Source: Pseudobdellovibrionaceae bacterium
Lineage (GTDB): Bacteria > Bdellovibrionota > Bdellovibrionia > Bdellovibrionales > UBA1609
Reading direction: 5' to 3'
DNA length: 64,000 bases
NCBI GenBank assembly: GCA_023954155.1
Contig: JAMLIO010000001.1
Coordinates: 437,322-501,321, forward strand
Of the stretch, positions 1,212-63,429 are shown one piece after another; the stretch's first letter is position 1; every line of letters begins with the position of its first letter. The translations under genes and the position numbers were made by a program. The notes under the pieces were generated by a model, which had not been told where the DNA came from, searched no databases, and saw only the letters and a list, made by a program, of their open reading frames with translations.

Positions 1212-3878
1212 ATGGCAAATTTATTAGCAAAAATTTTTGGTACATCCCACGATAGAGAAATGAAAAGGCTTCAGCCCTTTGTTCAAAAAATAAACGCTCT
1301 TGAACCCCAAATGGAAAAACTCACCGATTCTGAACTGCAAAATCAGACACAGATTTTTAAAGACAGATTGGCAAAAGGGGAGACCTTAGATGACATCCTC
1401 ATCGAAGCTTTTGCGACCTTAAGAGAGGCCGCAAAAAGAGTTTTGGGTATGAGACACTACGATGTGCAGCTCATTGGGGGGATGACCTTGCATCGTGGCG
1501 CCGTGGCTGAGATGCGAACAGGGGAAGGCAAAACCTTGGTTGCGACCTTACCTGTATATTTGAATGCTCTTTCTGGTAAAGGCGTGCACGTTGTGACAGT
1601 GAACGACTACTTGGCTACCAGAGACTCAGAGTGGATGGGACAGTTGTACAAATGGATGGGACTTTCGGTAGGCATCATTGTGCATAACCTCAGCGATCAA
1701 CAACGTAAAGAATCCTACAATTGCGATATCGTATACGGAACTAACAACGAATTTGGTTTTGATTATTTGCGCGACAACATGAAGTTCAGTGCCGAGCGTT
1801 TTGTACAGAGGGAACTCAACTACGCCATTGTCGATGAATGTGACTCGATCTTGATTGATGAGGCGAGAACGCCATTGATCATTTCAGGACCCTCAGAGGA
1901 CTCTGTAGATAAGTATTACGAGATCAACAAGATCATCCCGAAGCTCCAGTTAGATGTACACTTCACAATGGAAGAAAAGTCTAAACAAGTGTCATTGACT
2001 GAAGACGGAAACGCCAAAGTCGAAGAGCTTTTGGGCGTGGATAACATTTATGACATTCAAAACATCTGGATGATGCATCACATTTACCAAGGCTTAAAAG
2101 CTCACCATCTTTTTAAAAGAGATGTGGATTATATGATTGTGGATGATGAGATTGTGATCGTGGATGAATTTACAGGTCGATTGATGCCTGGTCGACGTTG
2201 GAGCGATGGCTTACATCAAGCTGTTGAGGCCAAAGAGGGCGTAACGGTAAAAAGTGAAAACCAAACTCTAGCAACGATCACCTTCCAAAACTTTTTTAGA
2301 ATGTACAATAAACTTTCTGGTATGACAGGAACTGCAGAAACTGAAGCCATGGAGTTTAAAAAGATTTATAATTTAGACGTTGTGGTGATTCCCACAAACA
2401 AACCTATTGCAAGAAAAGACTTAAACGATGTGATCTATAAAAACGAAGCGGCGAAATATCGCGCTATCGTTGAAGACATCAAATCACGAGCTGCAAAAGG
2501 CCAACCTATTCTTGTGGGTACAGTGAGCATTGAAAAATCTGAGCGACTCAGTTCGATGCTACAGAAGTACAATGTTAAACATAGTGTCTTAAATGCTAAG
2601 CACCACGAACATGAAGCAGAAATCGTAGCGCAAGCGGGTCGACTGGCTGCCGTGACCATTGCCACCAACATGGCGGGAAGAGGGACGGATATTGTTCTGG
2701 GGGGAAACTCAGAATTTATGGCCAGAAGAATCAATGCAGATGAGACGACCGAAGAGTACAAAGAAGCTCTTAGACGCTTTAAAGCCCAATGCGAAGAAGA
2801 AAAGAAAAAAGTTTTAGAGGCGGGCGGTTTGTACATCATTGGTACTGAACGCCATGAAGCAAGACGTGTGGACAACCAGTTGCGAGGTCGTGCTGGACGT
2901 CAAGGGGACCCAGGGGAGTCCAAATTTTATCTCAGTTTAGATGACGATCTTTTGCGTATCTTTAATGGCGACACGATGAAAAGGATCATGGAAAGATTTA
3001 ATTTCCCTGAAGATGAACCTATTGAAGCACGCATGGTGAACCGTTCTATTGAAGGTGCACAGAAGAAAGTGGAAGGTCACAACTTTGAGATTCGTAAGAG
3101 TCTGATTGAGTTTGATGATGTGATGAACCAACAACGAACAATCATTTATGGTTTACGTCGAGAAGTGCTTCAAGGCGAAAACATTGAACGTTCAGTTTTA
3201 GACGTTATGGGGGATGTGACCTCAGATATTTTAGATAGGTATGCTCCTGAAGATGCAAAATTGTCAGATTGGGATTTAGAAAGCATGGCCTCAGCTTTGA
3301 ACCGTATTGGTGTAAATTACACGGCCGCAGATTTGCAAAATATCCCTGCCCAAGACATCACAAATACAGTCAGTGCCGCAGTTAAAGAGGTATTTGATTC
3401 GCAAAAGACAAGACTTGCGAGCATTTTTGATCAAGTTGTCAGAATGGTTTACCTAGAGGCGATTGATACTTTATGGAAAGATCACTTAAAAAATATTGAT
3501 AAAATTCGTGAAGGGATACATCTGCGCGCTTATGGACAGAAAGACCCTGTGGCGGAATATAAAAAAGAGGCCTTTAAAGCTTTTGAAAGTGTCTTAGCTG
3601 AAATCAAAAATACTACAGTGGAAAGAGTGTTACGAGTACAGGTGCTCACTCCTGAAGAAGTGGAGGCGAGTCGACGCGAGTTTGAAGATGAGAACCTTGA
3701 TTACTCTGGTTCAGAGGATGGGGTTTCTGCTTTTGACAGCACACAAAGCCAACAACTCATGGGAATGACTCAAAATCATCAGAACTTACAAATGAATCGT
3801 GGCCCCAGTGCGCAGGATTTGAATCGCAAACAAAGACGACAGTCTGAAAAGAAAAAAAAGAAAAAATTAAAACTTTAA
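1212..3878 (+). CDS. secA: preprotein translocase ATPase SecA
   Basis: 888 aa. It has MRTGEGKTLVATLP (Walker A), DEARTPLIISG, TNMAGRGTDI and a lysine-rich tail. Confidence 0.98.
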   Translation: MANLLAKIFGTSHDREMKRLQPFVQKINALEPQMEKLTDSELQNQTQIFKDRLAKGETLDDILIEAFATLREAAKRVLGMRHYDVQLIGGMTLHRGAVAEMRTGEGKTLVATLPVYLNALSGKGVHVVTVNDYLATRDSEWMGQLYKWMGLSVGIIVHNLSDQQRKESYNCDIVYGTNNEFGFDYLRDNMKFSAERFVQRELNYAIVDECDSILIDEARTPLIISGPSEDSVDKYYEINKIIPKLQLDVHFTMEEKSKQVSLTEDGNAKVEELLGVDNIYDIQNIWMMHHIYQGLKAHHLFKRDVDYMIVDDEIVIVDEFTGRLMPGRRWSDGLHQAVEAKEGVTVKSENQTLATITFQNFFRMYNKLSGMTGTAETEAMEFKKIYNLDVVVIPTNKPIARKDLNDVIYKNEAAKYRAIVEDIKSRAAKGQPILVGTVSIEKSERLSSMLQKYNVKHSVLNAKHHEHEAEIVAQAGRLAAVTIATNMAGRGTDIVLGGNSEFMARRINADETTEEYKEALRRFKAQCEEEKKKVLEAGGLYIIGTERHEARRVDNQLRGRAGRQGDPGESKFYLSLDDDLLRIFNGDTMKRIMERFNFPEDEPIEARMVNRSIEGAQKKVEGHNFEIRKSLIEFDDVMNQQRTIIYGLRREVLQGENIERSVLDVMGDVTSDILDRYAPEDAKLSDWDLESMASALNRIGVNYTAADLQNIPAQDITNTVSAAVKEVFDSQKTRLASIFDQVVRMVYLEAIDTLWKDHLKNIDKIREGIHLRAYGQKDPVAEYKKEAFKAFESVLAEIKNTTVERVLRVQVLTPEEVEASRREFEDENLDYSGSEDGVSAFDSTQSQQLMGMTQNHQNLQMNRGPSAQDLNRKQRRQSEKKKKKKLKL

Positions 3879-5556: not shown

Positions 5557-5775
5557 AGTCTTACGTTATCAGGGATTTTAGAGTTCGCCAAATCATTTGC
5601 GGCCTAGATTTTTTCACAGAAATTCGAGTTGTAGTAAGATGAAAATCTCAAAAATTGCACAGATATTAAGCGAACTTAATCCATTTTGAAGGTGAAAATT
5701 AATTGATCATTCAGTTGATTTATTCCATTGTGAGGGGTAATTACAAAACTATACCAAATTTTAAGGAGACTGCGA

Positions 5776-6303
5776 ATGTCCACTCAAGACCCCTACAATC
5801 GTTCAGGGTATTATATGTTTCTCGGCAGTATGGTTGCCTCGTTGTTATTTTTCTTTTATCTGAGTTTCCTTCATCCAGGCGTAAGAGGCGTAGACCACAA
5901 TATTGTTAAAGACTACAACCCAGATGCAGCAAGTACAAAATTTGATTTGGCTACGGCCGAAGAGCCTTGGCTATCTTCAGACAATATGATTGCTGCGGGC
6001 AAAAAATCTTACGATGTAAACTGTGCCGTTTGCCATGCTGCGGATGGGACAGGTATCGCAGCTATGGGTGCTAGAAACCTAGTAGAAGGCAAATGGAAAA
6101 AAGGCGGCACATCCATCCATTTATTTGAGACTATCACCAAAGGTTTAGAAAGAGACCCATCGGTTCCTGGGATTATGGCTCCCTTTGGCCACCTGCCTGC
6201 AAATGAAAGATGGGCCTTGGTGCACTTCATTCGATCTATTACAAACAATAAAGCGGCCGATGATTCAGCAGAGTTAGAAAGCTTTGGTAAGGCAAATATG
6301 TAG
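5776..6303 (+). CDS. membrane-anchored class I cytochrome c
   Basis: 175 aa with an N-terminal TM helix and the heme-binding motif CAVCH. It is the first gene of the oxidase cluster. Confidence 0.8.
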   Translation: MSTQDPYNRSGYYMFLGSMVASLLFFFYLSFLHPGVRGVDHNIVKDYNPDAASTKFDLATAEEPWLSSDNMIAAGKKSYDVNCAVCHAADGTGIAAMGARNLVEGKWKKGGTSIHLFETITKGLERDPSVPGIMAPFGHLPANERWALVHFIRSITNNKAADDSAELESFGKANM

Positions 6304-17881: not shown

Positions 17882-18047
17882 GGCGTTGTTGTTTGGAAGG
17901 TCTTTAGAAGAAATATCCCTCTAACAAGAGGCACGCCCATCCATGGGCTCTTCCAGTATTTGCCCTGCGGGCAAAACGCGTCACGCTTACTGGAGGCCTA
18001 TTGTTAGGGAGATATCTCTTCTAAAGACCTTCCAAACAACAACTGCC
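17882..18047. repeat. 166-nt long imperfect inverted repeat with nested sub-hairpins (candidate structured RNA or MITE)
   Basis: Arms 17882-17927 and 18001-18047 are complementary, with 3 mismatches and a 1-nt bulge. The interior holds GCCCATccATGGGC (17935-17948), CTTCCAGTA/TACTGGAGG (17950-58 with 17988-96) and TTGCCCtgcGGGCAA (17960-74). Confidence 0.85.
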
Positions 18048-48323: not shown

Positions 48324-48590
48324 ATGAAAAAAACAAGATACACAGAAGAACAGATCGTGCACGCCCTTCGCAGAGCCGAGTCTGGCGAACGAGCCAAGGA
48401 AGTTTGTCGTAGCCTAGGAATAACCGAGCAAACTTTTTATACATGGAAGAAGAAGTATGCAGGGTTAGGGATAAGTGAGCTACGCAAGCTAAAACAGCAA
48501 GAAGACGAGATTCGTCGTTTAAAGAACCTAGTAGCAGACCTCATGCTGGATAAACAAATGCTCCAAGAGGTGGTTCAAAAAAAGCTCTAA
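48324..48590 (+). CDS. IS3-family transposase OrfA (HTH)
   Basis: 88 aa beginning [45 protein letters not shown], followed by a leucine zipper. This is the typical IS3/IS407 OrfA. Confidence 0.9.
48578..48584 (+). promoter_or_regulatory. programmed -1 ribosomal frameshift site A AAA AAG
   Basis: The slippery heptamer lies in the orfA zero frame (codons AAA AAG at 48579-84). The -1 frame is open from 48578 straight into orfB. Confidence 0.75.
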
Positions 48591-48622: not shown

Positions 48623-49429
48623 TTGGTCAAGAATTTTCGCGTGAGCCATCGTAGAGTTTGCAGGTTATTGCGTCTGGCTCGGTCAACATATGACTATAAG
48701 AACCACCCTAGAGATGATCGTGCAGTTCGGGAAAAGATCATCAGCATAGCGCAATCAAGGCCACGTTATGGCTGTCCACGCATACATGTCTTACTTAGGC
48801 GTGAAGGCTGGAAGGTTAATCACAAAAGGGTTCATAGGATTTATAAGGAAGAGCAGTTATGGGTACGCACCAAGAAAGTTCGTCGCAGAAAATTTACAAC
48901 TGAGCTAAGAGTTACACCTCCTACCCCGACCAATCTTAATCAAGTTTGGACAATGGATTTTGTGCATGACCAGTTGATTGATGGCCGTAAGATACGGATG
49001 TTAACCATAGTTGATAAGTTGAGTCGAGAAAGCCTAGCAATTGATTCTGGGTATGGCCTTAAATCAGAACAGGTTATAGAAACACTAGAGCGTTTAAAAA
49101 TTTTCAGAGGAATTCCAGAGGTTATATGTGTAGACAATGGGAGTGAATTTACATCAAAAAAACTTGATCAGTGGGCTTATATAAATGAAGTAAAGTTACA
49201 TTTTATTAGACCTGGAAAGCCTACAGAAAATGGGCACATAGAATCGTTTAACGGTAGACTTAGGGATGAGTTTTTAAATGCAAATCTCTTTTCAAGCCTT
49301 GAGGACTTCCAAAGAAAGGCGGAAAGATGGCGTATAGAATATAACAATTGGAGACCTCATTCATCAATAGGCAACTTGACACCAAGAGAATTTGCTAGGA
49401 GAAGAATGAATAAACAGACCGCTTGTTAA
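48623..49429 (+). CDS. IS3-family transposase OrfB (DDE integrase domain), expressed as an OrfAB fusion
   Basis: WTMDFV (D), DNGSEFTS (D) and [20 protein letters not shown] (E), the canonical rve domain. Confidence 0.9.
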
Positions 49430-49528
49430 TGCGTTGTCACTCAGAAAGATACTGGCTTTGTCGATGGGGATAGATCAAATGCGTTGTCACTCAGAAAGAT
49501 ACTGGCTTTGTCGATGGGGATAGATCAA
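49429..49528 (+). repeat. perfect 2 x 50-bp tandem duplication inside the IS3 3' region
   Basis: atgcgttgtcactcagaaagatactggctttgtcgatggggatagatcaa occurs at 49429-49478 and again at 49479-49528. The first copy starts at the last base of the orfB stop codon. Confidence 0.95.
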
Positions 49529-49669
49529 TCCTCCACTTCAGTCCGATTATACATGGACTGGTTTTTGGGGGTAGGGTCACCTACTTAGTTTTTATATTTC
49601 ATGTCCGGTTTCATGCGAAATTTTGGGCAGTGATGTACACTCAAACTCATTTTAAAATGGCTCACGATC

Positions 49670-51160
49670 TTGTCTTTGTGTTTGCATATAGACCATGTTG
49701 TGACCAATGCTTTCCCTCTTTATGTTAGAAGACAACCTGAAGCCTCTCTCCTTCATCAAATATTTAAAAATCATTGGCTGGATTTTTTAAGTTCTATACA
49801 AAACCATGAAGATGAGAAAATTCTTCCAAGTTTTGTCATTAAAGAAATAGAGGATTATTTTAAATGCGGAGTTTTAGCTAATGGTTTTGTTAGACTTTAC
49901 TGCAAAGACTGTCAAAAAAGCCAACTTGTCGCATTTTCTTGTAAGAGAAGGGGGTTTTGCCCAAGTTGTTGTGCCAAAAGGATGAACTTTACTGCTAGTC
50001 ATTTGATTGATCATGTTCTTCCAAACGTGGGAGTCAGGCAATGGGTATTGTCTTTTCCATTTCAGCTTAGGTTTTTAATGGCATACAACCCAAAGCTTAT
50101 CAGTCAAATTCTTAAAATATTTATTAACGCCATTCAGTTTAGGTATCGAAGAAAGGCCAAAAAGTTGGGTTTTAAAAATACTCAAACAGGAGCTGTCACA
50201 GTTATCCAAAGAGCAGGTGGGGCACTGAATTCTAACGTGCATTTTCATACACTTTTTTTAGATGGCATCTATCATCAAGTGAACGGTAAATTTTGTTTTT
50301 ACTCTGTTCTTGGGCCTAATAATGAGGAACTAAAATCGTTAGCGCAAAAGGTAAGAAAAAAAGTAATTAGGTTACTGGAACGACAGGGCTATTTTGATAC
50401 AGGCCAAGATCAAAATGGATGGGTTCAAGACAGATTAACTCAAGCCTCTATTATGCAGATTTCAATGGCGGGTGATCGATCGGGTAAAATTCTTCGAAGA
50501 CTTAAAAATGAACTTTTTAGAACCTATGTAAAGCATTCTCCTGATGGCGGGGTTAATATCAGTGGCTTTAGCTTACATGCCAATGTGAGGGTCCCAGCAA
50601 ACAAAAGAAAAAAATTAGAAAAACTCTGTCGGTATATCAGCAGAGGACCTGTCGCCACGGGCAGAATGTTTAAACTACCAAGCGGTGATATTGGCTACAG
50701 ACTAAAGCGTCCATGGAATGATGGAACAACACATATTATATTTTCTCCGCAAGAGTTAATAGAAAAACTAGCGGCAATCATTCCACCCCCAAGGGCGAAT
50801 CTTATTCGATATCATGGAATTCTGGCTCCAAATGCTAAGAGTAGGAGTCAGATTGTGCCAAAACTAAAAAGATCAGTTGAAAAAGAAAAATCTGCATCCA
50901 AGAGAAAAACTAACAACATGACTTGGTCTGAAATGCTAAAACGGGTGTTTTTAATTGACGTCACAAAATGTCAGTTCTGTGGTGGTTCATTAAAATTAAT
51001 CGCTACAATTAAAGAAAAGCAAGCCATCCAAACTATTCTTGAAAGTATGGGGTATTTAGCCGTTGCTCCGAAATTCAAACCCAGTTTGGGACGAGCGCCG
51101 CCCAAACCCAGAACATTCATTCATGATTCTGATGAAAGTCAGCTTCCTGCTAATTGGTAA
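49670..51160 (+). CDS. tnpA: IS91-family Y2 HUH transposase
   Basis: 496 aa with an N-terminal zinc-binding domain (YCKDCQKS...FSCKRRGFCPSCCAKR), an HUH motif (NVHFHTLFLDG) and Tyr motifs (CRYISRGP, LIRYHGILAP). It has a non-ATG start, TTG at 49670 or GTG at 49700. Confidence 0.88.
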   Translation: MSLCLHIDHVVTNAFPLYVRRQPEASLLHQIFKNHWLDFLSSIQNHEDEKILPSFVIKEIEDYFKCGVLANGFVRLYCKDCQKSQLVAFSCKRRGFCPSCCAKRMNFTASHLIDHVLPNVGVRQWVLSFPFQLRFLMAYNPKLISQILKIFINAIQFRYRRKAKKLGFKNTQTGAVTVIQRAGGALNSNVHFHTLFLDGIYHQVNGKFCFYSVLGPNNEELKSLAQKVRKKVIRLLERQGYFDTGQDQNGWVQDRLTQASIMQISMAGDRSGKILRRLKNELFRTYVKHSPDGGVNISGFSLHANVRVPANKRKKLEKLCRYISRGPVATGRMFKLPSGDIGYRLKRPWNDGTTHIIFSPQELIEKLAAIIPPPRANLIRYHGILAPNAKSRSQIVPKLKRSVEKEKSASKRKTNNMTWSEMLKRVFLIDVTKCQFCGGSLKLIATIKEKQAIQTILESMGYLAVAPKFKPSLGRAPPKPRTFIHDSDESQLPANW

Positions 51161-51239
51161 TCTGGAGGTTAGGGCCAAAGTGTGTCTAAATCTATGATTG
51201 CTTTGAAATAACTCTCAAAGAATCTTTAATTTTCCTTTG

Positions 51240-51361
51240 TTAACAGCCCTCTTCTGGCAAAAAAGCCGAAAAACTAGCCAAAGGACCTAGGAAAACCTTC
51301 TGATAATTAACGCTTATGTTTTGACCTGGACTTAAAAAGGGCGTTTGTTTTTCCTATACTC
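51240..51361 (+). repeat. 122-bp IS91 terminal module, copy a (attached to tnpA)
   Basis: ttaacagccctcttctggc...gggcgtttgtttttcctatactc. It is identical to the copies at 57243, 59389 and 63308. Confidence 0.95.
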
Positions 51362-55886: not shown

Positions 55887-56765
55887 ATGATATTGGATCA
55901 AAGTTATAAATTTATCGACTATCAAGATTATAAGGCCCACTCATTTTATTGCATGGGGGGCCTTTGCGAAGTTTTGGTAGAAACACAAGATAAAAATCAG
56001 TCTCTACAGGTCTTCCAAAAAGTTTATCAAGAGGTCAAACGTTTAGAAAAAAAATATAGCCGATATGAAAAAGGCAATATTATTGATCAGGTCAATACAG
56101 CAAATGGAAAAAAAATTAAAATTGATGAAGAGACTTTTCGTCTTTTAAAATTTGCTGACACTTTATTTCACGCCAGTCATGGGATGTTTGATATCACGTC
56201 TGGAGTTTTACGCCGCGCTTGGATTTTTGATCAGAGCAATAACATTCCACCTAATGAACAGATTCTTCCACTTCTAAATTTAATAGGCTGGCAAAAAGTG
56301 GAATTTAATAAAAACTTTGTTCGTCTACCTGATGGCTGGCAATTGGATTTTGGAGGAATCGGCAAAGAGTATGCCGCGGACCGTGGAGCTCAACTTGCGC
56401 ACGAATTAAATTTAGCTCCCACACTTGTTAATCTGGGTGGAGACATTGCTATTACTGGTCCAAAAAGAAATGGATCTGGCTGGAAAATAGAACTTGATGA
56501 AGAACAAGATGCATTAATTCTTCTGTCAGGTGGTGTGGCCACAAGTGGGGATAAAAACAAATACTTGCTACAAAATGGAAAAAAGCTCTCGCATATTTTA
56601 AATGCAAAAACAGCTTATCCCGTAGAAGATGCGCCTCGATCCACCACCGTCGTCGCCTCCACTTGCACCGAAGCTGGAGCCTTATCCACATTAAGTATGT
56701 TATACGGCAAAGATGCCGAAAAGTTTTTAAAAGAAGAAGCTCAAGATTTTCGTGTTTTTAGATAA
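55887..56765 (+). CDS. apbE: FAD:protein FMN transferase
   Basis: 292 aa in the ApbE family (FDITSG, DFGGIGKEYAADR, LGGDIA, GVATSGD). Confidence 0.88.
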   Translation: MILDQSYKFIDYQDYKAHSFYCMGGLCEVLVETQDKNQSLQVFQKVYQEVKRLEKKYSRYEKGNIIDQVNTANGKKIKIDEETFRLLKFADTLFHASHGMFDITSGVLRRAWIFDQSNNIPPNEQILPLLNLIGWQKVEFNKNFVRLPDGWQLDFGGIGKEYAADRGAQLAHELNLAPTLVNLGGDIAITGPKRNGSGWKIELDEEQDALILLSGGVATSGDKNKYLLQNGKKLSHILNAKTAYPVEDAPRSTTVVASTCTEAGALSTLSMLYGKDAEKFLKEEAQDFRVFR

Positions 56766-56790
56766 TTATTTTAACCAAAAAAAGGGCTAC

Positions 56791-57246
56791 ATGTTTAAAA
56801 AAGTTCTATTTAGTTTGCTGTCCATTTTAATATTTAAATTCAACGCACACGCCTATTCTTTTGATACTTTTAAAAAAGAAGTGACCTCTCCTTTCACGAC
56901 AAATGCAAAATATTATCTTTTGTCTGGATCCATTTTGACTACGATTTTAGTCTTTGATGGCGTTGAAGATTCTTTAGGTCATCGAATTCAAGACGACACC
57001 GTCGAAGACAAACCACTTGGCAGCTATTCGACCTATGGAGATTTGGCAGGTCAAATGGTTCCTAACGCTTTATACACTCTCGGGTTTTATACAGCGTATT
57101 GGATTTCAGATAATCCTGAATTCAGAAAAAAATCCATTTTGATGTTAAAAGCTACTGCGTACTCTGGACTTGTGACTTCAGTGCTTAAAGTGACAATCCG
57201 TGAGCCTCGCCCAAACGGAAATAATCGCCATTCTTTTCCATCTTAA
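56791..57246 (+). pseudogene. PAP2-family phosphatase, 3'-truncated by 122-bp repeat copy b
   Basis: Signal/TM region then the C1 motif KVTIREPRP. The sequence ends ...SFPS where the PSGH (C2) motif should continue. The TAA stop (57244-46) lies inside the repeat, and the C3 motif SRx5Hx3D is absent. Confidence 0.75.
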
Positions 57247-57364
57247 CAGCCCTCTTCTGGCAAAAAAGCCGAAAAACTAGCCAAAGGACCTAGGAAAACC
57301 TTCTGATAATTAACGCTTATGTTTTGACCTGGACTTAAAAAGGGCGTTTGTTTTTCCTATACTC
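57243..57364 (+). repeat. 122-bp IS91 terminal module, solo copy b
   Basis: Identical to 51240-51361 and in the same orientation. No transposase gene is adjacent. Confidence 0.95.
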
Positions 57365-57511
57365 GATTGTAATAAAAACCCAATTATAGGTCGTCACAAT
57401 TAATATAAAGTATATCATTTAAAGATGTGTAGCTTTCATTTTTATGGAGCCAATTGTAATCTAAGAAAATAATATTTTGGTAGAAAGTTTAATTCTATTG
57501 GGGGTTGAATA

Positions 57512-58393
57512 GTGGTAGAAAATATTTTTAGAATATTTGAAGAAAATAATGTGGAGGCAACTCGCTTTTCTAGCTTCCCTTCCATTAAATCAAATTACAT
57601 AAGTAATTATGCTGATGCAATAGCTTTGTCTGAGAGATTAAATAATGAGGCATCAAAAAACATCAAAGAAGATAAATATATTTTTCATGCAAATATATTA
57701 ACCCACTTTGAGTATTTTTTTGATAAAAAAAATAAAGAAAAATTAGACAAAGATTTGTTATTGAATATACTCCCCTTAATTCTTGGTGGGTACGATGCCT
57801 ATCTTAGCGTTGTCAGTGGTTTTTATAATAGATCGAATTTAACTATGTCAGTTGTTGGAAGGTCTCTTTTTGAAGGTTTGATAATATTGCTAACAATTAA
57901 TAATGATAAAAATCTAGCGAAACAATATTACCGATATAAAGAAATTGAGAAATTAAAATTTCAAATGCGAGAAGAAGAAATAACAAACGAAGAGTTTCTT
58001 AGGATATTAAAAAATGATTTTCCCGAATGGTATTCTGAAATTGGTCGTATTAGAAGAAAAAAAATAGGCAATTGGTTAGGAGTTGAGCAGTACTCGTTAA
58101 GAGACTTGGCGGTTACTTTAGATAAAGAAAAGCAATATAAATCATTTTACAAAGTTTATAGTTTGTATTCACATATGCAGCCATCAATAATTAATCACTA
58201 CAATCTTTCAGGGGGAGTATTGAATACAAATCTAAGTAATCTGAATCAACAATATTGTATAATGTTGGATATTGCTTTTGACTATATAATTACTATCTAT
58301 AAGTTGTTTGGTCTGGATGACCTAGCTGTGGATTTAGAAGCTCAGAAAAATATTACTCTGTTTAGTTTGCAAAAATATCAAGAATCATTGTGA
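57512..58393 (+). CDS. hypothetical protein (293 aa), orphan
   Basis: GTG start, AT-rich codon usage and an all-helical composition. It may be DUF5677-like (GRSLFEGLI..., YSLYSHMQPS), but that is only an impression. Confidence 0.5.
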   Translation: MVENIFRIFEENNVEATRFSSFPSIKSNYISNYADAIALSERLNNEASKNIKEDKYIFHANILTHFEYFFDKKNKEKLDKDLLLNILPLILGGYDAYLSVVSGFYNRSNLTMSVVGRSLFEGLIILLTINNDKNLAKQYYRYKEIEKLKFQMREEEITNEEFLRILKNDFPEWYSEIGRIRRKKIGNWLGVEQYSLRDLAVTLDKEKQYKSFYKVYSLYSHMQPSIINHYNLSGGVLNTNLSNLNQQYCIMLDIAFDYIITIYKLFGLDDLAVDLEAQKNITLFSLQKYQESL

Positions 58394-58451
58394 TGATAAA
58401 ATAGTCTTAAAATAATTAAACTGATATAGATATAAGGTTTATAAAGAGGTG

Positions 58452-59117
58452 CTATTTAAACCAATTTTGTCGATTATTCCAAAATTGTATATCTTTATGT
58501 TTCTTATGAATTTTATAATATTCTAGGTAATCAATGATTTTTTTTACTTGCTCATCTGATTTACCATATTTTTCAAATATATTTCTTAGCTCATCGGTTG
58601 TAATGGATTGTATATTTTTATGTATTGTTTCCCTATCGTTTTGCCATTCATCCATGCGTTCAGCTGGAACGGCTCTATGAGTGATTGTATGTGTTATTAA
58701 ATAACCAACATAGTCATGTTCGACCCATGTATGCCAGTTTTCTTGAATGGATTTAATTTCATTTTTTGGAATTTTTAAGTCTGTTAATAAGCTTTGGATA
58801 TCACTATATACTTTTTCTTGTTGTTGATCGTTAAAGCCGCCCCAGCGATTACTTGTTTGAACTAGTTCAAGTATCATGTAAGAGACGGTTTTTGCTAAAG
58901 ACCTAAGTTCGTCTAATGCTGACTCAACTCTTTGAAGTTCTATTTTAGATCCCATAAAGCTTATAGATTGTATAACAGATGGGTTTGCCAAAAGTATGAA
59001 AAAAACAGTAAAAAAAGTCCAAACAAGCAGCTTTGAAATTGAAGGATCTGGTATATAACTTAAATAAATCACTCCGATAAAACATATAAAAGCCACGATA
59101 TTAAATAATATTTTCAT
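58452..59117 (-). CDS. hypothetical membrane-anchored protein (221 aa)
   Basis: Two N-terminal TM helices plus a helical cytoplasmic domain. It lies downstream of the truncated XRE gene on the same strand. Confidence 0.5.
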   Translation of the reverse strand: MKILFNIVAFICFIGVIYLSYIPDPSISKLLVWTFFTVFFILLANPSVIQSISFMGSKIELQRVESALDELRSLAKTVSYMILELVQTSNRWGGFNDQQQEKVYSDIQSLLTDLKIPKNEIKSIQENWHTWVEHDYVGYLITHTITHRAVPAERMDEWQNDRETIHKNIQSITTDELRNIFEKYGKSDEQVKKIIDYLEYYKIHKKHKDIQFWNNRQNWFK

Positions 59118-59193
59118 TTACACTGAGCCTTCAAAAATATATTGGATAGTAGCGAAGAATACTAAATATTTATGAATTTTTATATAGTAATGA

Positions 59194-59388
59194 CTATTCA
59201 AAATCAATCAGTTTTTTGATTGGGACATATAGGGTGTTGGCTATTCTGGCTAAAGTAAACACCTCAGGACTAGTTAAGCCGTTTTCAATTTTACTTATTG
59301 TGCCCCTAGAAAATCCAGCTTCCAAGCAAAGCCTGTCCTGACTATAGCCCTTTTGTTTGCGAACCTTCGAAATATGTGCGCCTAATTT
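59194..59388 (-). pseudogene. XRE-family HTH gene lacking its start codon (5' end removed at repeat copy c)
   Basis: Not in the track. The reverse frame reads KLGAHISKVRKQKGYSQDRLCLEAGFSRGTISKIENGLTSPEVFTLARIANTLYVPIKKLIDFE*. The codon before the first K is a TAA formed by the repeat edge, and no in-frame start precedes the HTH. Confidence 0.7.
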
Positions 59389-59510
59389 TTAACAGCCCTC
59401 TTCTGGCAAAAAAGCCGAAAAACTAGCCAAAGGACCTAGGAAAACCTTCTGATAATTAACGCTTATGTTTTGACCTGGACTTAAAAAGGGCGTTTGTTTT
59501 TCCTATACTC
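59389..59510 (+). repeat. 122-bp IS91 terminal module, solo copy c
   Basis: Identical to the other three copies and in the same orientation. Confidence 0.95.
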
Positions 59511-59632
59511 AAGGTAGAACTCGAAAGCCCAAAGCCAACACAACCATGAGGTGTGATCCTTTTAAAAGGTAGAATAAAAAATTTGACAGCGACTTTTAAA
59601 AAATTTTGGTTAAAAAAGGGAGAAAATTTAAT

Positions 59633-60061
59633 ATGTTAAATTTGAGGCAACACATATTCGTTAGTAATTATTTGGTTTCATTCAATGCAACAGATTCCTA
59701 TAGAAAGGCTTACTCAACTGCGAATTTACGAACTGCTGAAGTGAATGGGGCCCGATTGCTGAGAAATGCTGAGGTTAAAGCGGAAATTAACAAAGAAAAG
59801 GCCCTTTGTATTAAAAGAAATCGTTTGGAAGTGGATTGGGTCATTAGTAGACTTATGATGATTGCAGATACCCCGATGTTCTTCGGAATCAATTTATCAG
59901 AAGATAATCTGTTGGACTATTTTTGGAAAAACCTATCTGGCGTGAAAAAGTTCAGGTACAGAAAAAAGGGCAATTTCTTACACTTTAAAGTTGAAATGCA
60001 GGATAAAATTGAAGCACTAAGTTTGCTTGGTCGATATTTGGTGCTAAGGGATTTGAGGTAA
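59633..60061 (+). CDS. phage terminase small subunit-like protein (Terminase_2/P27 type)
   Basis: LRQHIFVSNYLVSFNATDSYRKAYSTANLRTAEVNGARLLRNAEVKAEI matches the conserved N-terminal HTH of the P27-family TerS. The ATG at 59633 follows a gggaga RBS. No large terminase gene lies nearby. Confidence 0.7.
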   Translation: MLNLRQHIFVSNYLVSFNATDSYRKAYSTANLRTAEVNGARLLRNAEVKAEINKEKALCIKRNRLEVDWVISRLMMIADTPMFFGINLSEDNLLDYFWKNLSGVKKFRYRKKGNFLHFKVEMQDKIEALSLLGRYLVLRDLR

Positions 60062-60189
60062 TCCGCAATGATAATATTTTATATTTTAACCATCGGTTCA
60101 AATATAAAATATTGCCATATAATAAATTAAGAGCTCATCTGTTTAGCAATTAGAGTCTCTACATTTTTCAAACCATGATTTTTATCTTT

Positions 60190-60438
60190 TTAATAACTTG
60201 ATTGATACACATTGCTCTGCTCTGTCCTACAATCGTAACCAGAACACACTTGCCTTGGCGTATGGTCTTCGTGCTGGTCTTTGGGCAAATGAGAATTGTA
60301 TTCGTCGTTGATATTACCCCCATATTCCTGACCACAGCCCCATTCGCTACATACTTCGATTATGATGTCCCCGTCTTGGAACGCATTTGCATTCGCTTGT
60401 ACTATTAAAAATGTAAATAAAACTAATATTTGTTTCAT
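60190..60438 (-). CDS. small secreted cysteine-motif protein (82 aa)
   Basis: Signal peptide (...VQANANA), then two similar motifs, CSEWGC and CSGYDC. Confidence 0.45.
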   Translation of the reverse strand: MKQILVLFTFLIVQANANAFQDGDIIIEVCSEWGCGQEYGGNINDEYNSHLPKDQHEDHTPRQVCSGYDCRTEQSNVYQSSY

Positions 60439-60494
60439 ACTTTATCCTTTGAAATTCTTAAATAATTCGAATTGGTTCATTAAAGTTTACGTTA

Positions 60495-60971
60495 CTATGC
60501 AATATCACTTAATTTTTCATGAGATCTAGCTGTATTGAGGAAGTATTCTTGAAGTTGAACAAGTTTGTTGCCTATATGATCGCAAGCTACTGATCGTTCA
60601 AAGTCATTTTGCAATTTAAAGGTTAATGAACGGGATTCCATTCTTTTGATTAAGTTAGCTAAATTATAGGCATTATAAACATTTCCAACATTTTGAATAG
60701 TTAGGATTGTACCTACACCAAAGATAAAACAACCTAAGCCGCTTGCAAGTCCTTCAAAATAGAATATTGATCCTGTTGAAGCCAAATAAACTAGTGTGGC
60801 TACTATAAAAACATGGGCATCTTTTGGATCTGATATAGCGTCTTGAAGGCCATTAGGTTTAACTTTAAGAACGTCGTTACTGACTATTGCTTGTCCAAAT
60901 AATAGATCGGTTTTCGAGCGTCTAAAAATTATTCCAATGGCAATAACAGAAGCAAAAAATAAAACATACAT
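60495..60971 (-). CDS. hypothetical membrane protein (158 aa)
   Basis: Three or four TM helices plus a C-terminal soluble tail. It lies immediately upstream of the Cys-motif peptide on the same strand. Confidence 0.45.
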   Translation of the reverse strand: MYVLFFASVIAIGIIFRRSKTDLLFGQAIVSNDVLKVKPNGLQDAISDPKDAHVFIVATLVYLASTGSIFYFEGLASGLGCFIFGVGTILTIQNVGNVYNAYNLANLIKRMESRSLTFKLQNDFERSVACDHIGNKLVQLQEYFLNTARSHEKLSDIA

Positions 60972-61245
60972 AAAGTCCCCCGCGTGAGTTATACAATTGC
61001 AACAAGTTCGCCAAACCAGATCCTATATAACCTCTTTGACTGTCCAAAAATTTAATAAATGACCTAACAATATGCAGATTTCTACATAGCCACTGGTTTT
61101 TAGCCGGCATAGAAACTCGACCATAAACATCTGAAATAGCTAAACTTTTTAATTTAAAACGTCATTCGTATTGTTGTGATACGAAATTTAGTTGACAAAA
61201 GATTACAAAAGTTGCTAATAGCCAGTCTGGATGGTACAATAAAGT

Positions 61246-62370
61246 ATGGATAAAAGATTAAATACTACGCTTATCGAAGACCGAATGCTCGAGGAAGGGT
61301 TATCGCAAACTGACCTTGCAAGCAAAATTGGTGTGACTAGGACGTGCATATCGTCTTGGCTTAAACCGGAAAAGATGCCACGTCCAAGGCATATCCTAAA
61401 ATTAAGTGAGATATTGAATCTGACATTCAAAGAGATTTTAATTACTAATCAAGCTAGGCCCCAAGTTGCATTTCGGAAAAGTGGTAATTATAAGATTACG
61501 GACAGTCATAGGCAGAAGTTTGAGTATACGACAACACTGCTATCAAAATTAACTAAATATTTGCCATTTGAACCACTATTTTCGGCACCCTCTTTTATAG
61601 ATCCAAAAGTAGATTATATCTATATCCAAAAGGTGGCTCAGAGTATCCGTAATAAATTCCATATATCTAACAGTATTATTGAAAATGAAAAATTGGTTGA
61701 AATCTTCAGGAATATCCAGGCAGTACTGGTGCCGGTTATGTGGGGAAGAAAACACTATAAAATGGCAACCCATATTTATTTGCCGGATAGCCAAACCACA
61801 TGGGTTTTCGCTAATATCAATGCTAATATTTATGATTTCAAGTTTTGGTTATCCCATGAATTGGGTCATGCTTGTGCTCCGAATTTATTAGACCAGGAAG
61901 GCGAGGACTTCGCTGATTCTTTTGCTGGTGAATTACTTTTCCCTTCAACTGAAGCAAAGATTGCTTATGAAAAAATTATTTCTAATTCAGATAAGGATGA
62001 AAAAGTAAGGGTTATTCAAACAATAGCCAAGGACTTTAAGATCTCACCGATTACAATTTATAAACAGATAGAAAAGTATATTAAACATAACGATTTTGAA
62101 ACTTTAGGCCTTGAAAAAATTATTTACAGATACAGTCAGGCTTTCAATAGTGCGAGTTCTGTAAGTGAGTTGCTTTTCCAGTCTGAACAGCCTGATGTAA
62201 AGGTGTATATTAAGGAATCACAGGATTATTTTAAAACAGATTTTTTTAAGATTTTGAGAAATTATATTACAGAGAATGATGCTGACCCTAAATTCGTAGC
62301 TAATCTCATGGACATCCCATTAAGCGATGCATATGCAATATTTGAAGAAATTAGCGTTGCTAAGGCTTAG
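61246..62370 (+). CDS. XRE HTH fused to an ImmA/IrrE (COG2856) zinc metallopeptidase domain
   Basis: 374 aa with an N-terminal HTH (GLSQTDLASKIGVTRTCISSWLK), the motif SHELGHAC (HEXXH) and DFADSFAGELLFP, typical of ImmA/IrrE. Confidence 0.8.
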   Translation: MDKRLNTTLIEDRMLEEGLSQTDLASKIGVTRTCISSWLKPEKMPRPRHILKLSEILNLTFKEILITNQARPQVAFRKSGNYKITDSHRQKFEYTTTLLSKLTKYLPFEPLFSAPSFIDPKVDYIYIQKVAQSIRNKFHISNSIIENEKLVEIFRNIQAVLVPVMWGRKHYKMATHIYLPDSQTTWVFANINANIYDFKFWLSHELGHACAPNLLDQEGEDFADSFAGELLFPSTEAKIAYEKIISNSDKDEKVRVIQTIAKDFKISPITIYKQIEKYIKHNDFETLGLEKIIYRYSQAFNSASSVSELLFQSEQPDVKVYIKESQDYFKTDFFKILRNYITENDADPKFVANLMDIPLSDAYAIFEEISVAKA

Positions 62371-62372
62371 TG

Positions 62373-62936
62373 ATGAAGCAGCAGAAGTTTTTAGTTGATT
62401 CAAATGTTTATTTCCGACTAGCTCAATCAATTCATCCACTGCTTTGTAACCCAATGGGCCCAAATAGGATTACTCTTTATATTATATCTGAGTTTGAATT
62501 AGAGTATTTTCGAGGCGCAGAGCTTCAGAATAAATTTGGATGGGTTGAATCCGAAGATTATGCCTTAAATCGTAGAAAATTTATCCCTCTCAGTAAAAAA
62601 CAAAAATTTCGTAGGGAGAATGCAATCGATGCTATGGCGGATACATCTTCAGAAATGCGGCTTACAACTGGACTCGCTGATATCAAGGCTTTAGCTCACG
62701 CTTATGCTGCTGAAATTACCATTCTTACTGATGATTCAGATCTCATAAAACTCGCACTTGAGTTTGAGGTTAAATTTTTGAAATTAGCCCAATTCCTCAA
62801 ACTGTTAGTCGATGAAGGTATTCTGCAAATTGGCAGAGTGAGAGAGATATATAATTATTTAGAAGAAATGAAAGATTTCCCGAAAAATTTCGAATCTGAT
62901 TGTAAAGCAATTTTTGGAGTAGGTTGGAATAGCTAA
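62373..62936 (+). CDS. PIN-like nuclease candidate (DUF4411-like)
   Basis: The start overlaps the ImmA stop (TAGTGATG). FLVDSNVYF at the N-terminus and ILTDDSDL near the C-terminus sit where PIN-fold acidic residues are expected. This family partners with COG2856, as I recall from comparative TA surveys. Confidence 0.55.
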   Translation: MKQQKFLVDSNVYFRLAQSIHPLLCNPMGPNRITLYIISEFELEYFRGAELQNKFGWVESEDYALNRRKFIPLSKKQKFRRENAIDAMADTSSEMRLTTGLADIKALAHAYAAEITILTDDSDLIKLALEFEVKFLKLAQFLKLLVDEGILQIGRVREIYNYLEEMKDFPKNFESDCKAIFGVGWNS

Positions 62937-62942
62937 ATATTT

Positions 62943-63272
62943 CTAATTGTTGAATTCCATAAGTGGAAACGCAATGTTGTCCGGATCTTGTCGCTTCGGC
63001 GGTTCTTTCTTCCATACGATTTCAGATAGCCAATATTCTACTGTGGAATAGCCGAGTTCAATATCTTTGCCAAAACCAACAATATGATATCCGCCGTCTG
63101 CGGAAACGCCATTGAAACCGTCAAAAGATTTGGCCCTATCCCAAAGGTAGTCTTTCTCGAATATTTTCTTTCCATGGCGGTTTTTTACTAAAAAGTTGAT
63201 ACGATATTTTTGGACTTTTTCAGTGACACAAGTTTTGTCGTTAAACATACAGGGCTGCTTGGACATTCTCAC
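62943..63272 (-). CDS. hypothetical protein (109 aa)
   Basis: Open frame with plausible coding composition. I recognise no family. Confidence 0.4.
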   Translation of the reverse strand: MRMSKQPCMFNDKTCVTEKVQKYRINFLVKNRHGKKIFEKDYLWDRAKSFDGFNGVSADGGYHIVGFGKDIELGYSTVEYWLSEIVWKKEPPKRQDPDNIAFPLMEFNN

Positions 63273-63307
63273 TTTGGCTAAAGTTCCCCAGCCTACTGAA
63301 CATATGC

Positions 63308-63429
63308 TTAACAGCCCTCTTCTGGCAAAAAAGCCGAAAAACTAGCCAAAGGACCTAGGAAAACCTTCTGATAATTAACGCTTATGTTTTGACCTGGACT
63401 TAAAAAGGGCGTTTGTTTTTCCTATACTC
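63308..63429 (+). repeat. 122-bp IS91 terminal module, solo copy d
   Basis: Identical to the other three copies. It marks the return to higher-GC sequence carrying the lipocalin gene. Confidence 0.95.

Follow-up and report, generated by a model that had tools for sequence, protein, structure and literature searches.

The transposons closest to the element described here belong to the IS91 family and to its ISCR relatives. IS91 uses the bottom strand as its active intermediate; the ori end together with its flanking tetranucleotide suffices for transposition, and the ori region carries imperfect subterminal palindrome(s) (PMC13181058). The corresponding oriIS sequence reads GTGGTTTATACTTCCTATACCC in ISCR1 (PMC13023784) and GCGGTTGAACTTCCTATACC in ISCR27 (PMC8894482). 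[quoted passage not shown] Such miniatures arise by premature rolling-circle termination from a full-length copy in the same genome (PMC3189936). A more distant comparison is offered by Helraiser, a HUH rolling-circle transposon which uses a hairpin near one end as terminator and transduces flanking DNA when this hairpin is bypassed (PMC4778049).

The 122-bp repeat as an IS91/ISCR origin end

In the window, i.e. the whole 64,000-nt stretch of DNA that was analysed, a 122-nt repeat unit (51240-51361, running from TTAACAGCCC to CCTATACTC) occurs as four identical direct copies in one orientation, starting at 51240, 57243, 59389 and 63308. The first of these lies downstream of a transposase gene, and the features concerned are as follows.

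49568-49699, plus strand: putative left (terIS) end region, assigned with low confidence from length homology with the relative L020 and a short palindrome
49700-51160, plus strand: IS91/ISCR-family HUH transposase gene (tnpA), 486 aa from the GTG at 49700, with the reading frame open from the TTG at 49670
51240-51361, plus strand: module copy 1, native right (oriIS) end of the full element, 80 nt past the tnpA stop
51340-51361, plus strand: oriIS core and terminus, GGCGTTTGTTTTTCCTATAC followed by TC, taking in the 16-nt tail (51346-51361)
57243-57364, plus strand: solo module copy 2, which gives the stop codon to a truncated PAP2-like reading frame (56752-57246)
59389-59510, plus strand: solo module copy 3, identical 122-nt repeat
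63308-63429, plus strand: solo module copy 4, identical 122-nt repeat

The adjoining gene encodes an intact HUH/Y2-type transposase. Its translation matches Y2_Tnp (PF04986, 8e-28) and Zn_Tnp_IS91 (PF14319, 2e-16), contains the HUH motif as HFH, and agrees at 485 of 486 residues with MCO5112985.1 at NCBI, from a Bdellovibrionaceae MAG, the sole difference being the GTG start read as M. Identity amounts to 41-44% with ISCR1, ISVsa3/ISCR2 and a Bdellovibrio plasmid copy, and to 41-42% if only ISCR1 and ISCR2 are considered. The 122-bp repeat represents the replication-origin end of a rolling-circle transposon of the IS91/ISCR type: it adjoins a Y2_Tnp-type HUH transposase with an N-terminal zinc-binding domain, a terminal ori motif (...TTCCTATAC..) ends 201 nt 3' of the tnpA stop, inside the range of about 150-250 nt expected for the family, and terminal inverted repeats and target-site duplication are both absent. 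The element thus shares with ISCR2, ISCR1 and ISCR27 the Pfam architecture of the transposase, the position of the ori about 200 nt 3' of tnpA and the lack of inverted terminal repeats and of target duplications. Unlike the ISCR elements, this lineage possesses an extra invariant block 122 nt inside its end as well as solo 122-bp ori copies, and it resides in an AT-rich Bdellovibrionota genome, whereas its ISCR relatives are found on resistance plasmids.

The likeness to ISCR elements is closest at the terminus itself. The last 22 nt of the module are GGCGTTTGTTTTTCCTATACTC and end 201 nt past the tnpA stop, while an ISCR2 copy read directly in L142 has AAAAGGGCGTTTATTCTTCCTATAC (...GAAAAGGGCGTTTATTCTTCCTATAC), with its ori end 227 nt past the stop, so that the terminal cores AAAAGGGCGTTTATTCTTCCTATAC of ISCR2 and AAAAAGGGCGTTTGTTTTTCCTATAC of this element are nearly alike. 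The two differ just 5' of the core, where ISCR2 has a local 6-bp hairpin, GTCCAA-N5-TTGGAC, of which only the 3' half is recognisable here. The window contains the 20-mer core GGCGTTTGTTTTTCCTATAC four times, where 0.02 occurrences would be expected, and exact matches were found at 18 genome loci of unrelated taxa, including Nitrosomonas, marine gammaproteobacteria, Legionellaceae, Bacteriovoracaceae, Luteimonas and Terriglobia, several of these loci having an IS91-type transposase immediately 5'. Judged by these matches, the final 22-25 nt of the module correspond to the conserved ori core of the family, which covers both the 16-nt tail and the 3' arm of a stem that had been proposed to close the module.

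It had been suggested in the earlier note that the module has the structure recognised by single-strand-acting HUH enzymes, a hairpin or closing stem next to a short conserved cleavage tail, and that a structure-defined termination site would explain the precise inner boundary. An IS91-type transposase with Y2_Tnp and Zn_Tnp_IS91 domains does adjoin the module and the tail is a conserved cleavage-proximal motif, but its role is a different one: since tail and 3' arm belong to the ori core, at which IS91 initiates, the tail is the initiation site, and termination would therefore fall at the opposite, inner end of the module.

With regard to the outer junction, which reads …TTTTTCCTATACTC and then N, the sequence CCTATA is followed by CTC+N in four of four copies and by CTY+N in most related loci, resembling the CTTG/CTCG of IS91. 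A canonical GTTC or CTTG tetranucleotide is not evident beside the ori, CTC+N alone being constant. Indications of the exact nick position conflict, as solo modules in the marine gammaproteobacterium HTCC2143 point to a nick after CCTATACTY and a duplication in L143 stops 8 nt inside the terminus. A local dyad AGGAAAAA/TTTTTCCT around GGGCGTTTG reaches 8 bp (p=0.004) in some related families (L004, L010), and in the window only A5/T5 of it is present (p=0.2). A consistent stable hairpin was not found in the last 70 nt across loci, for which z-scores were mostly near zero or positive (-0.9 to +1.4), with the exception of L010, the only clearly stable case (-1.8/-2.9). A search of the ori tail for an ISCR1-like outward promoter returned a single 9/12 match, which is within chance.

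The left end of the element is less well defined. Candidate palindromes are present 5' of tnpA in the window and in L019/L020, and the putative terIS region includes the palindrome GTAGG-GTCA-CCTAC after TTTG|, in each case judged from a single insertion context. Directly 5' of the element, a perfect 50-bp tandem duplication (49428-49527, 2 x AATGCGTTGTCACTCAGAAAGATACTGGCTTTGTCGATGGGGATAGATCA) begins at the stop of an IS3-family orfB (48623-49429; orfA at 48324-48590), the final 50 nt of the IS3-family IS thus appearing twice. A relative whose transposase is 72% identical lies in a mobilisable island with relaxase, NikA/MobC, serine recombinase and integrase genes (L019 9810-10000, L143 7734-7912), and just left of its inferred left end stands TTAGGGCGTTGCCCTAAGACCCTTG, a perfect palindrome with AGGGCGTT inside and ending CTTG. 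Elsewhere in the window (17885-18043) there is an inverted repeat, its 48-nt arms being 92% complementary and separated by 63 nt, which appears unrelated to the module.

The flanks of the four module copies are unrelated, neither a target duplication nor a common direct repeat being found in them, and the window holds no inverted copy of either module end. A MITE composed of left end plus right end was considered and rejected, because the first 19 nt of the module recur in the window only within the four copies, even with three mismatches allowed, and nothing similar to the module start occurs 5' of tnpA. A metagenome scan with the block TTTAATTTTCCTTTGTTAA returned 117 loci, all of which were chance AT-rich matches with the transposase never nearby, and neither a transposase search nor an ori-core pattern search of viral contigs gave a match.

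It could also be argued that the module is a pre-existing short repeat or preferred target beside which the transposon inserted, its true right end being at 51239, given that the conserved TTTTCCTTTG just left of the module looks terminus-like and that solo copies outnumber full copies in the window. This appears very improbable, as it is the module terminus that carries the canonical ISCR ori core, and as the module keeps its position and length in relatives of 60-92% transposase identity while diverging in step with the transposase. The module, moreover, gave no blastn match among plasmid records and matches no Rfam family.

The inner boundary of the solo copies

Each solo copy matches the final 122 nt of the full element at every base and is hence collinear with it, which turns attention to the sequence at which the copies part from it. 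The spacer between the tnpA stop and the module was aligned for the window, L021, L019, L023 and L022, with transposase identities of 52-92%. In these five lineages the sole strongly conserved stretch of the spacer is one invariant 18-nt block, TTAATTTTC-NNN-TG|TTAA, then YAG, which is found once in the window.

51226-51243, plus strand: invariant block TTAATTTTC-CTT-TG|TTAA, straddling the inner boundary; a putative ori-like cleavage/termination site

The block reads …TTAATTTTCCTTTG|TTAACAG at this locus, and the bar in TG|TTAA marks the exact inner boundary of the solo copies, likewise in L143, L145 and L144. A boundary inside an invariant block provides a simple sequence-based explanation for its precision. 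The block also resembles the ori core in the same polarity (CTTTAATTTTCCTTTG against GTTTGTTTTTCCTATA), with about 11 of 16 positions alike in what is AT-rich sequence, and at the inner end, TTG|TTAAC, the TAAC is one mismatch from GAAC. Among the flanks of the solo copies, the left flank of copy 2, CTTTTCCATC|, echoes the native TTTTCCTTTG|, and those of copies 3 and 4 show no convincing ori likeness.

Metagenomic contigs point independently to the use of this boundary in other samples. The Logan assembly uses k=31, and Logan contigs of three samples end exactly 30 nt past TTG|TTAA, two of them (L019, L020) carrying the 72% relative and the third (L144) the lineage of the window itself. Such ends would be accounted for by a repeat starting at that base, since unique sequence running into it would break in a k=31 assembly after k-1 = 30 nt; two more Logan contigs end at 28 and 27 nt. 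Taken as a whole, the inner boundary is probably sequence-defined, a second, ori-like cleavage or termination site being the reading that the alignments favour.

Plasmids of the pC194/pT181 type have an initiation nick and a similar termination nick in the same orientation, which together release the intervening segment as a single-stranded circle. A comparable logic may hold here for the outer ori and the inner ori-like block, with the differences that the plasmid sites are replication origins rather than a transposon end and that the inner block is only partly ori-like and a putative site. Closer still are the IS801 miniatures, which like the solo copies keep an intact right (ori) end and have a fixed internal stop. 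The solo copies would thus fit the known class of IS801 miniature right-end fragments by analogy, although the IS801 fragments are bounded by GAAC-like tetranucleotides with no conserved block, whereas the 122-nt unit described here has its boundary inside an invariant 18-nt block; furthermore, the solo copies, unlike the IS801 fragments, are genomically fixed, all share one orientation and are separated by cargo.

The best explanation, to which we assign a probability of roughly 0.65, is that the module is an ori end with a sequence-defined inner site, which yields solo copies by premature termination. The transposase would nick the bottom strand at the outer ori junction and displace this strand leftwards, and cleavage or termination would then take place at the ori-like inner block instead of the true left end, such that the 122-nt unit would be released and reinserted elsewhere as a premature-termination product of the kind seen with IS801. 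In such a scheme the boundary would be set mainly by sequence recognition, and a long-range stem would be at most an accessory that joins the two cleavage sites.

The proposed closing stem

The competing explanation, put forward in the earlier note, is that an HUH transposase recognises a closing stem together with the 16-nt tail, and that this structure fixes the inner boundary. The two arms of the stem are as follows.

51242-51250, plus strand: 5' arm of the proposed closing stem, AACAGCCCT
51338-51345, plus strand: 3' arm of the proposed closing stem, AGGGCGTT, inside the conserved ori core

The pairing itself is exactly as had been described, with bases 3-11 of the module forming eight pairs with bases 99-106 and A6 bulged, and the final 16 nt, TGTTTTTCCTATACTC, are indeed left over past the stem. 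Both arms overlap conserved sequence: the first five bases of the 5' arm (AAYAG) lie within the invariant block, the remainder varying in relatives, and the GGGCGTTT of the 3' arm recurs in ISCR2 and at the 18 genome loci of unrelated taxa.

When the module was folded as ssDNA, the stem was present in the minimum free energy (MFE) structure of both strands, but absent from both centroid structures. The MFE of the whole module was -9.3 and -10.0 kcal/mol for the two strands, which is no better than dinucleotide shuffles (z of +0.28 and +0.26). The stem pairs had probabilities of 0.17-0.35 (top strand) and 0.15-0.25 (bottom strand), and the stem by itself, with an 87-nt loop to close, contributes about -2 kcal/mol; these values speak against a structure that would dictate the boundary. 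Somewhat more favourable is the duplex that the module's first 15 nt form with its last 52 nt (-8.6 kcal/mol), which is equalled by 2-4% of shuffles, and by 7% under another null in which the conserved arm alone serves as bait. The pairing is therefore real, yet only marginally above chance before allowing for the free choice of partner.

Complete homologous modules could be recovered only three times, namely in the window, in L145/L143 and in L023, with lengths of 122, 122 and 121 nt and transposase identities of 100, 72 and 60%, respectively; the L023 module is a decayed copy. In these three modules the length and both ends are conserved and the interior is about 45-55% identical, and the maintenance of 121-122 nt while the interior diverges counts in favour of the stem. 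Other observations in its favour come from the individual relatives. On a MAFFT alignment, L023 could form seven of the eight pairs, two of them as G-T wobbles and one through a double change from C-G to T-A; such retention is equalled by 234 of 500 shuffles. In L145/L143 the arm change from GGGCGTT to GGGCTTT faces AGAGCCC on the 5' side. With two or three sequences, neither observation is significant. L143 also differs from the otherwise identical L145 in a 63-nt ori-proximal tandem duplication (L143 9462-9646 versus the single copy at L145 11256-11377), the junctions of which show no microhomology.

RNAalifold applied to the three modules does yield an end-to-end helix, but only in a shifted register, at -3.36 kcal/mol and with a covariation term of +0.23. 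In each of the three homologues the 5' end can still pair to some extent with the 3' third, but its best partner lies 25, 42 and 30 nt from the element end, respectively, and the MFE structure of L023 itself lacks the stem. The homologues as a group fold no better than expected (MFE z of -0.3, -0.3 and +0.66). Across the wider family, a fixed 5' partner for the arm GGGCGTT was not found, candidate partners being scattered 46-154 nt from the end and mostly non-significant, and the 3' arm, being ori core, is kept in families that have no consistent partner for it. Compensatory conservation of the two arms is not supported by the homologues: the register is shifted, the covariation bonus is absent and the partner differs from one sequence to the next. 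In our reading, the 5' end tends to find some partner in the 3' third, and a specific conserved closing stem is not demonstrated, even though a stem could still help to bring the two cleavage sites together.

Relatives further afield bear on the same question. Solo modules of HTCC2143, whose transposase is 43% identical, have at least four inner boundaries, at about 58, 88, 100 and 121 nt, and this variety speaks against one stop fixed by structure across the wider family. In addition, the IS801 miniature fragments carry no palindrome at their inner ends (PMC3189936). Helraiser, in which a hairpin acts as terminator, provides a precedent for structure-dependent termination in a HUH transposon (PMC4778049). 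The comparison with Helitron hairpins that the earlier note had suggested does not carry over to this locus, however. The Helitron hairpin is short and local, sits 10-20 nt from the 3' (termination) end and is served by a RepHel protein, whereas the stem considered here closes an 87-nt loop, has its 3' arm at the initiation end and is accompanied by an IS91-type transposase with no helicase domain match. Integron attC sites were likewise considered, in view of the TTAAC...GTT ends and the cassette-like array, and rejected, since the boundary is G|TTAACAG and not GTTRRRY, the repeat runs 16 nt past the 3' arm into the ISCR ori core, and the adjoining enzyme is an IS91 transposase.

In view of the weak energetics, of the lack of support from the few homologues, and of an invariant block that accounts for the boundary, structure-defined termination is an unlikely cause of the precise inner boundary. 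Taken alone, the folding claim is ordinary and weakly supported, and the sequence-defined inner site is retained as the preferred reading.

Cargo between the copies and arrays of solo origins

The DNA lying between the module copies differs in content and composition from one segment to the next. Segment A (37% GC) comprises genes for DsbD, redoxin, DUF3570 and ApbE and the truncated PAP2-like reading frame, segment B (28-30% GC) a DUF5677 protein and one unknown reading frame, and segment C a small terminase subunit and a HTH/ImmA-like gene. The cargo at 57365-63307 looks accessory or mobile, with a lone small terminase subunit, a HTH and ImmA/IrrE-like protein and several reading frames belonging to no family. 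The PAP2-like frame (56752-57246), recognised by a KxxxxxxRP...PS motif and a weak Pfam match restricted to profile positions 5-29 of 130, is broken by copy 2 within the PSGH motif, and the remaining 3' part of the gene is absent beyond copy 2 and throughout the window. Given these differences in content and GC between the inter-module segments, the copies do not represent three simple insertions into a single native stretch of DNA. The arrangement could reflect mobilisation of DNA to the left of solo oris, deletion between the direct-repeat modules or mis-joining in the MAG. As the solo copies keep a complete ori, a transposase acting in trans could mobilise the DNA on their left, giving rise to a mosaic of cargo between copies.

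The last of these possibilities deserves particular attention, because the copies might be real and their arrangement partly an artefact, if metagenome assembly chained scattered 122-bp insertions through their identical repeats. In favour of this, the window derives from a MAG and its repeats match one another perfectly over 122 bp, a length near the largest k-mers that assemblers use; also, the PAP2-like gene has no continuation on the far side of copy 2, which breaks it, and the GC content of segment B (28-30%) departs from that of segment A (37%). If the arrangement were such an artefact, the cargo units and the truncated-gene junction would be uninformative on mechanism. We regard it as rather improbable, given that the draft genome of HTCC2143, a cultured isolate, contains same-orientation solo ori modules every 0.7-3 kb. 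In addition, the PAP2 frame runs on in none of the window's four right flanks, and re-pairing of flanks within the window therefore cannot rescue the picture of simple insertions.

HTCC2143 has at least 15 solo ori modules, in same-orientation arrays with a spacing of 0.7-3 kb (L002, L005, L007, L009, L013). An identical cargo of about 650 nt, containing a DUF1330 gene, is located behind two different modules in two of these arrays, and several cargo reading frames begin 17-19 nt past a module end, three of them encoding paralogous secreted proteins of about 205 aa with 46-59% identity and no Pfam family. At L002 4626-4743 a 58-nt ori-proximal unit is duplicated after a full module. A second family of solo oris is also present in this genome (L009 about 3430-3518 and 5760-5844, plus strand, ...GACGCTTTATACTTCCTATACTC) and is closer to the ISCR1 consensus, one genome thus holding solo ends of at least two IS91-family lineages.

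These observations have raised a more speculative view, according to which an ISCR-like clade builds integron-like arrays, each ori module serving as both start and stop of rolling-circle excision. A cargo-plus-module unit between two ori junctions would leave as a single-stranded circle and insert precisely at a further ori junction. We consider this a tentative and fairly unlikely scenario. If true, it would account for the three 2-6 kb cargo segments seen here with their unrelated content and differing GC, and for the arrays of HTCC2143, the DUF1330 cargo behind two modules and the 58-nt and 63-nt tandem duplications. It is the array architecture, found at this locus as well as in HTCC2143, that may merit a study of its own.

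In IS91 and ISCR elements, the choice of stop decides how much neighbouring DNA is carried along, resistance genes included. The lineage described here is a natural minimal substrate for this process, a 122-nt unit with a canonical ori and a conserved inner block that is represented by three homologous versions of the same length, and each solo ori copy could serve as a starting point from which the genes to its left are mobilised.
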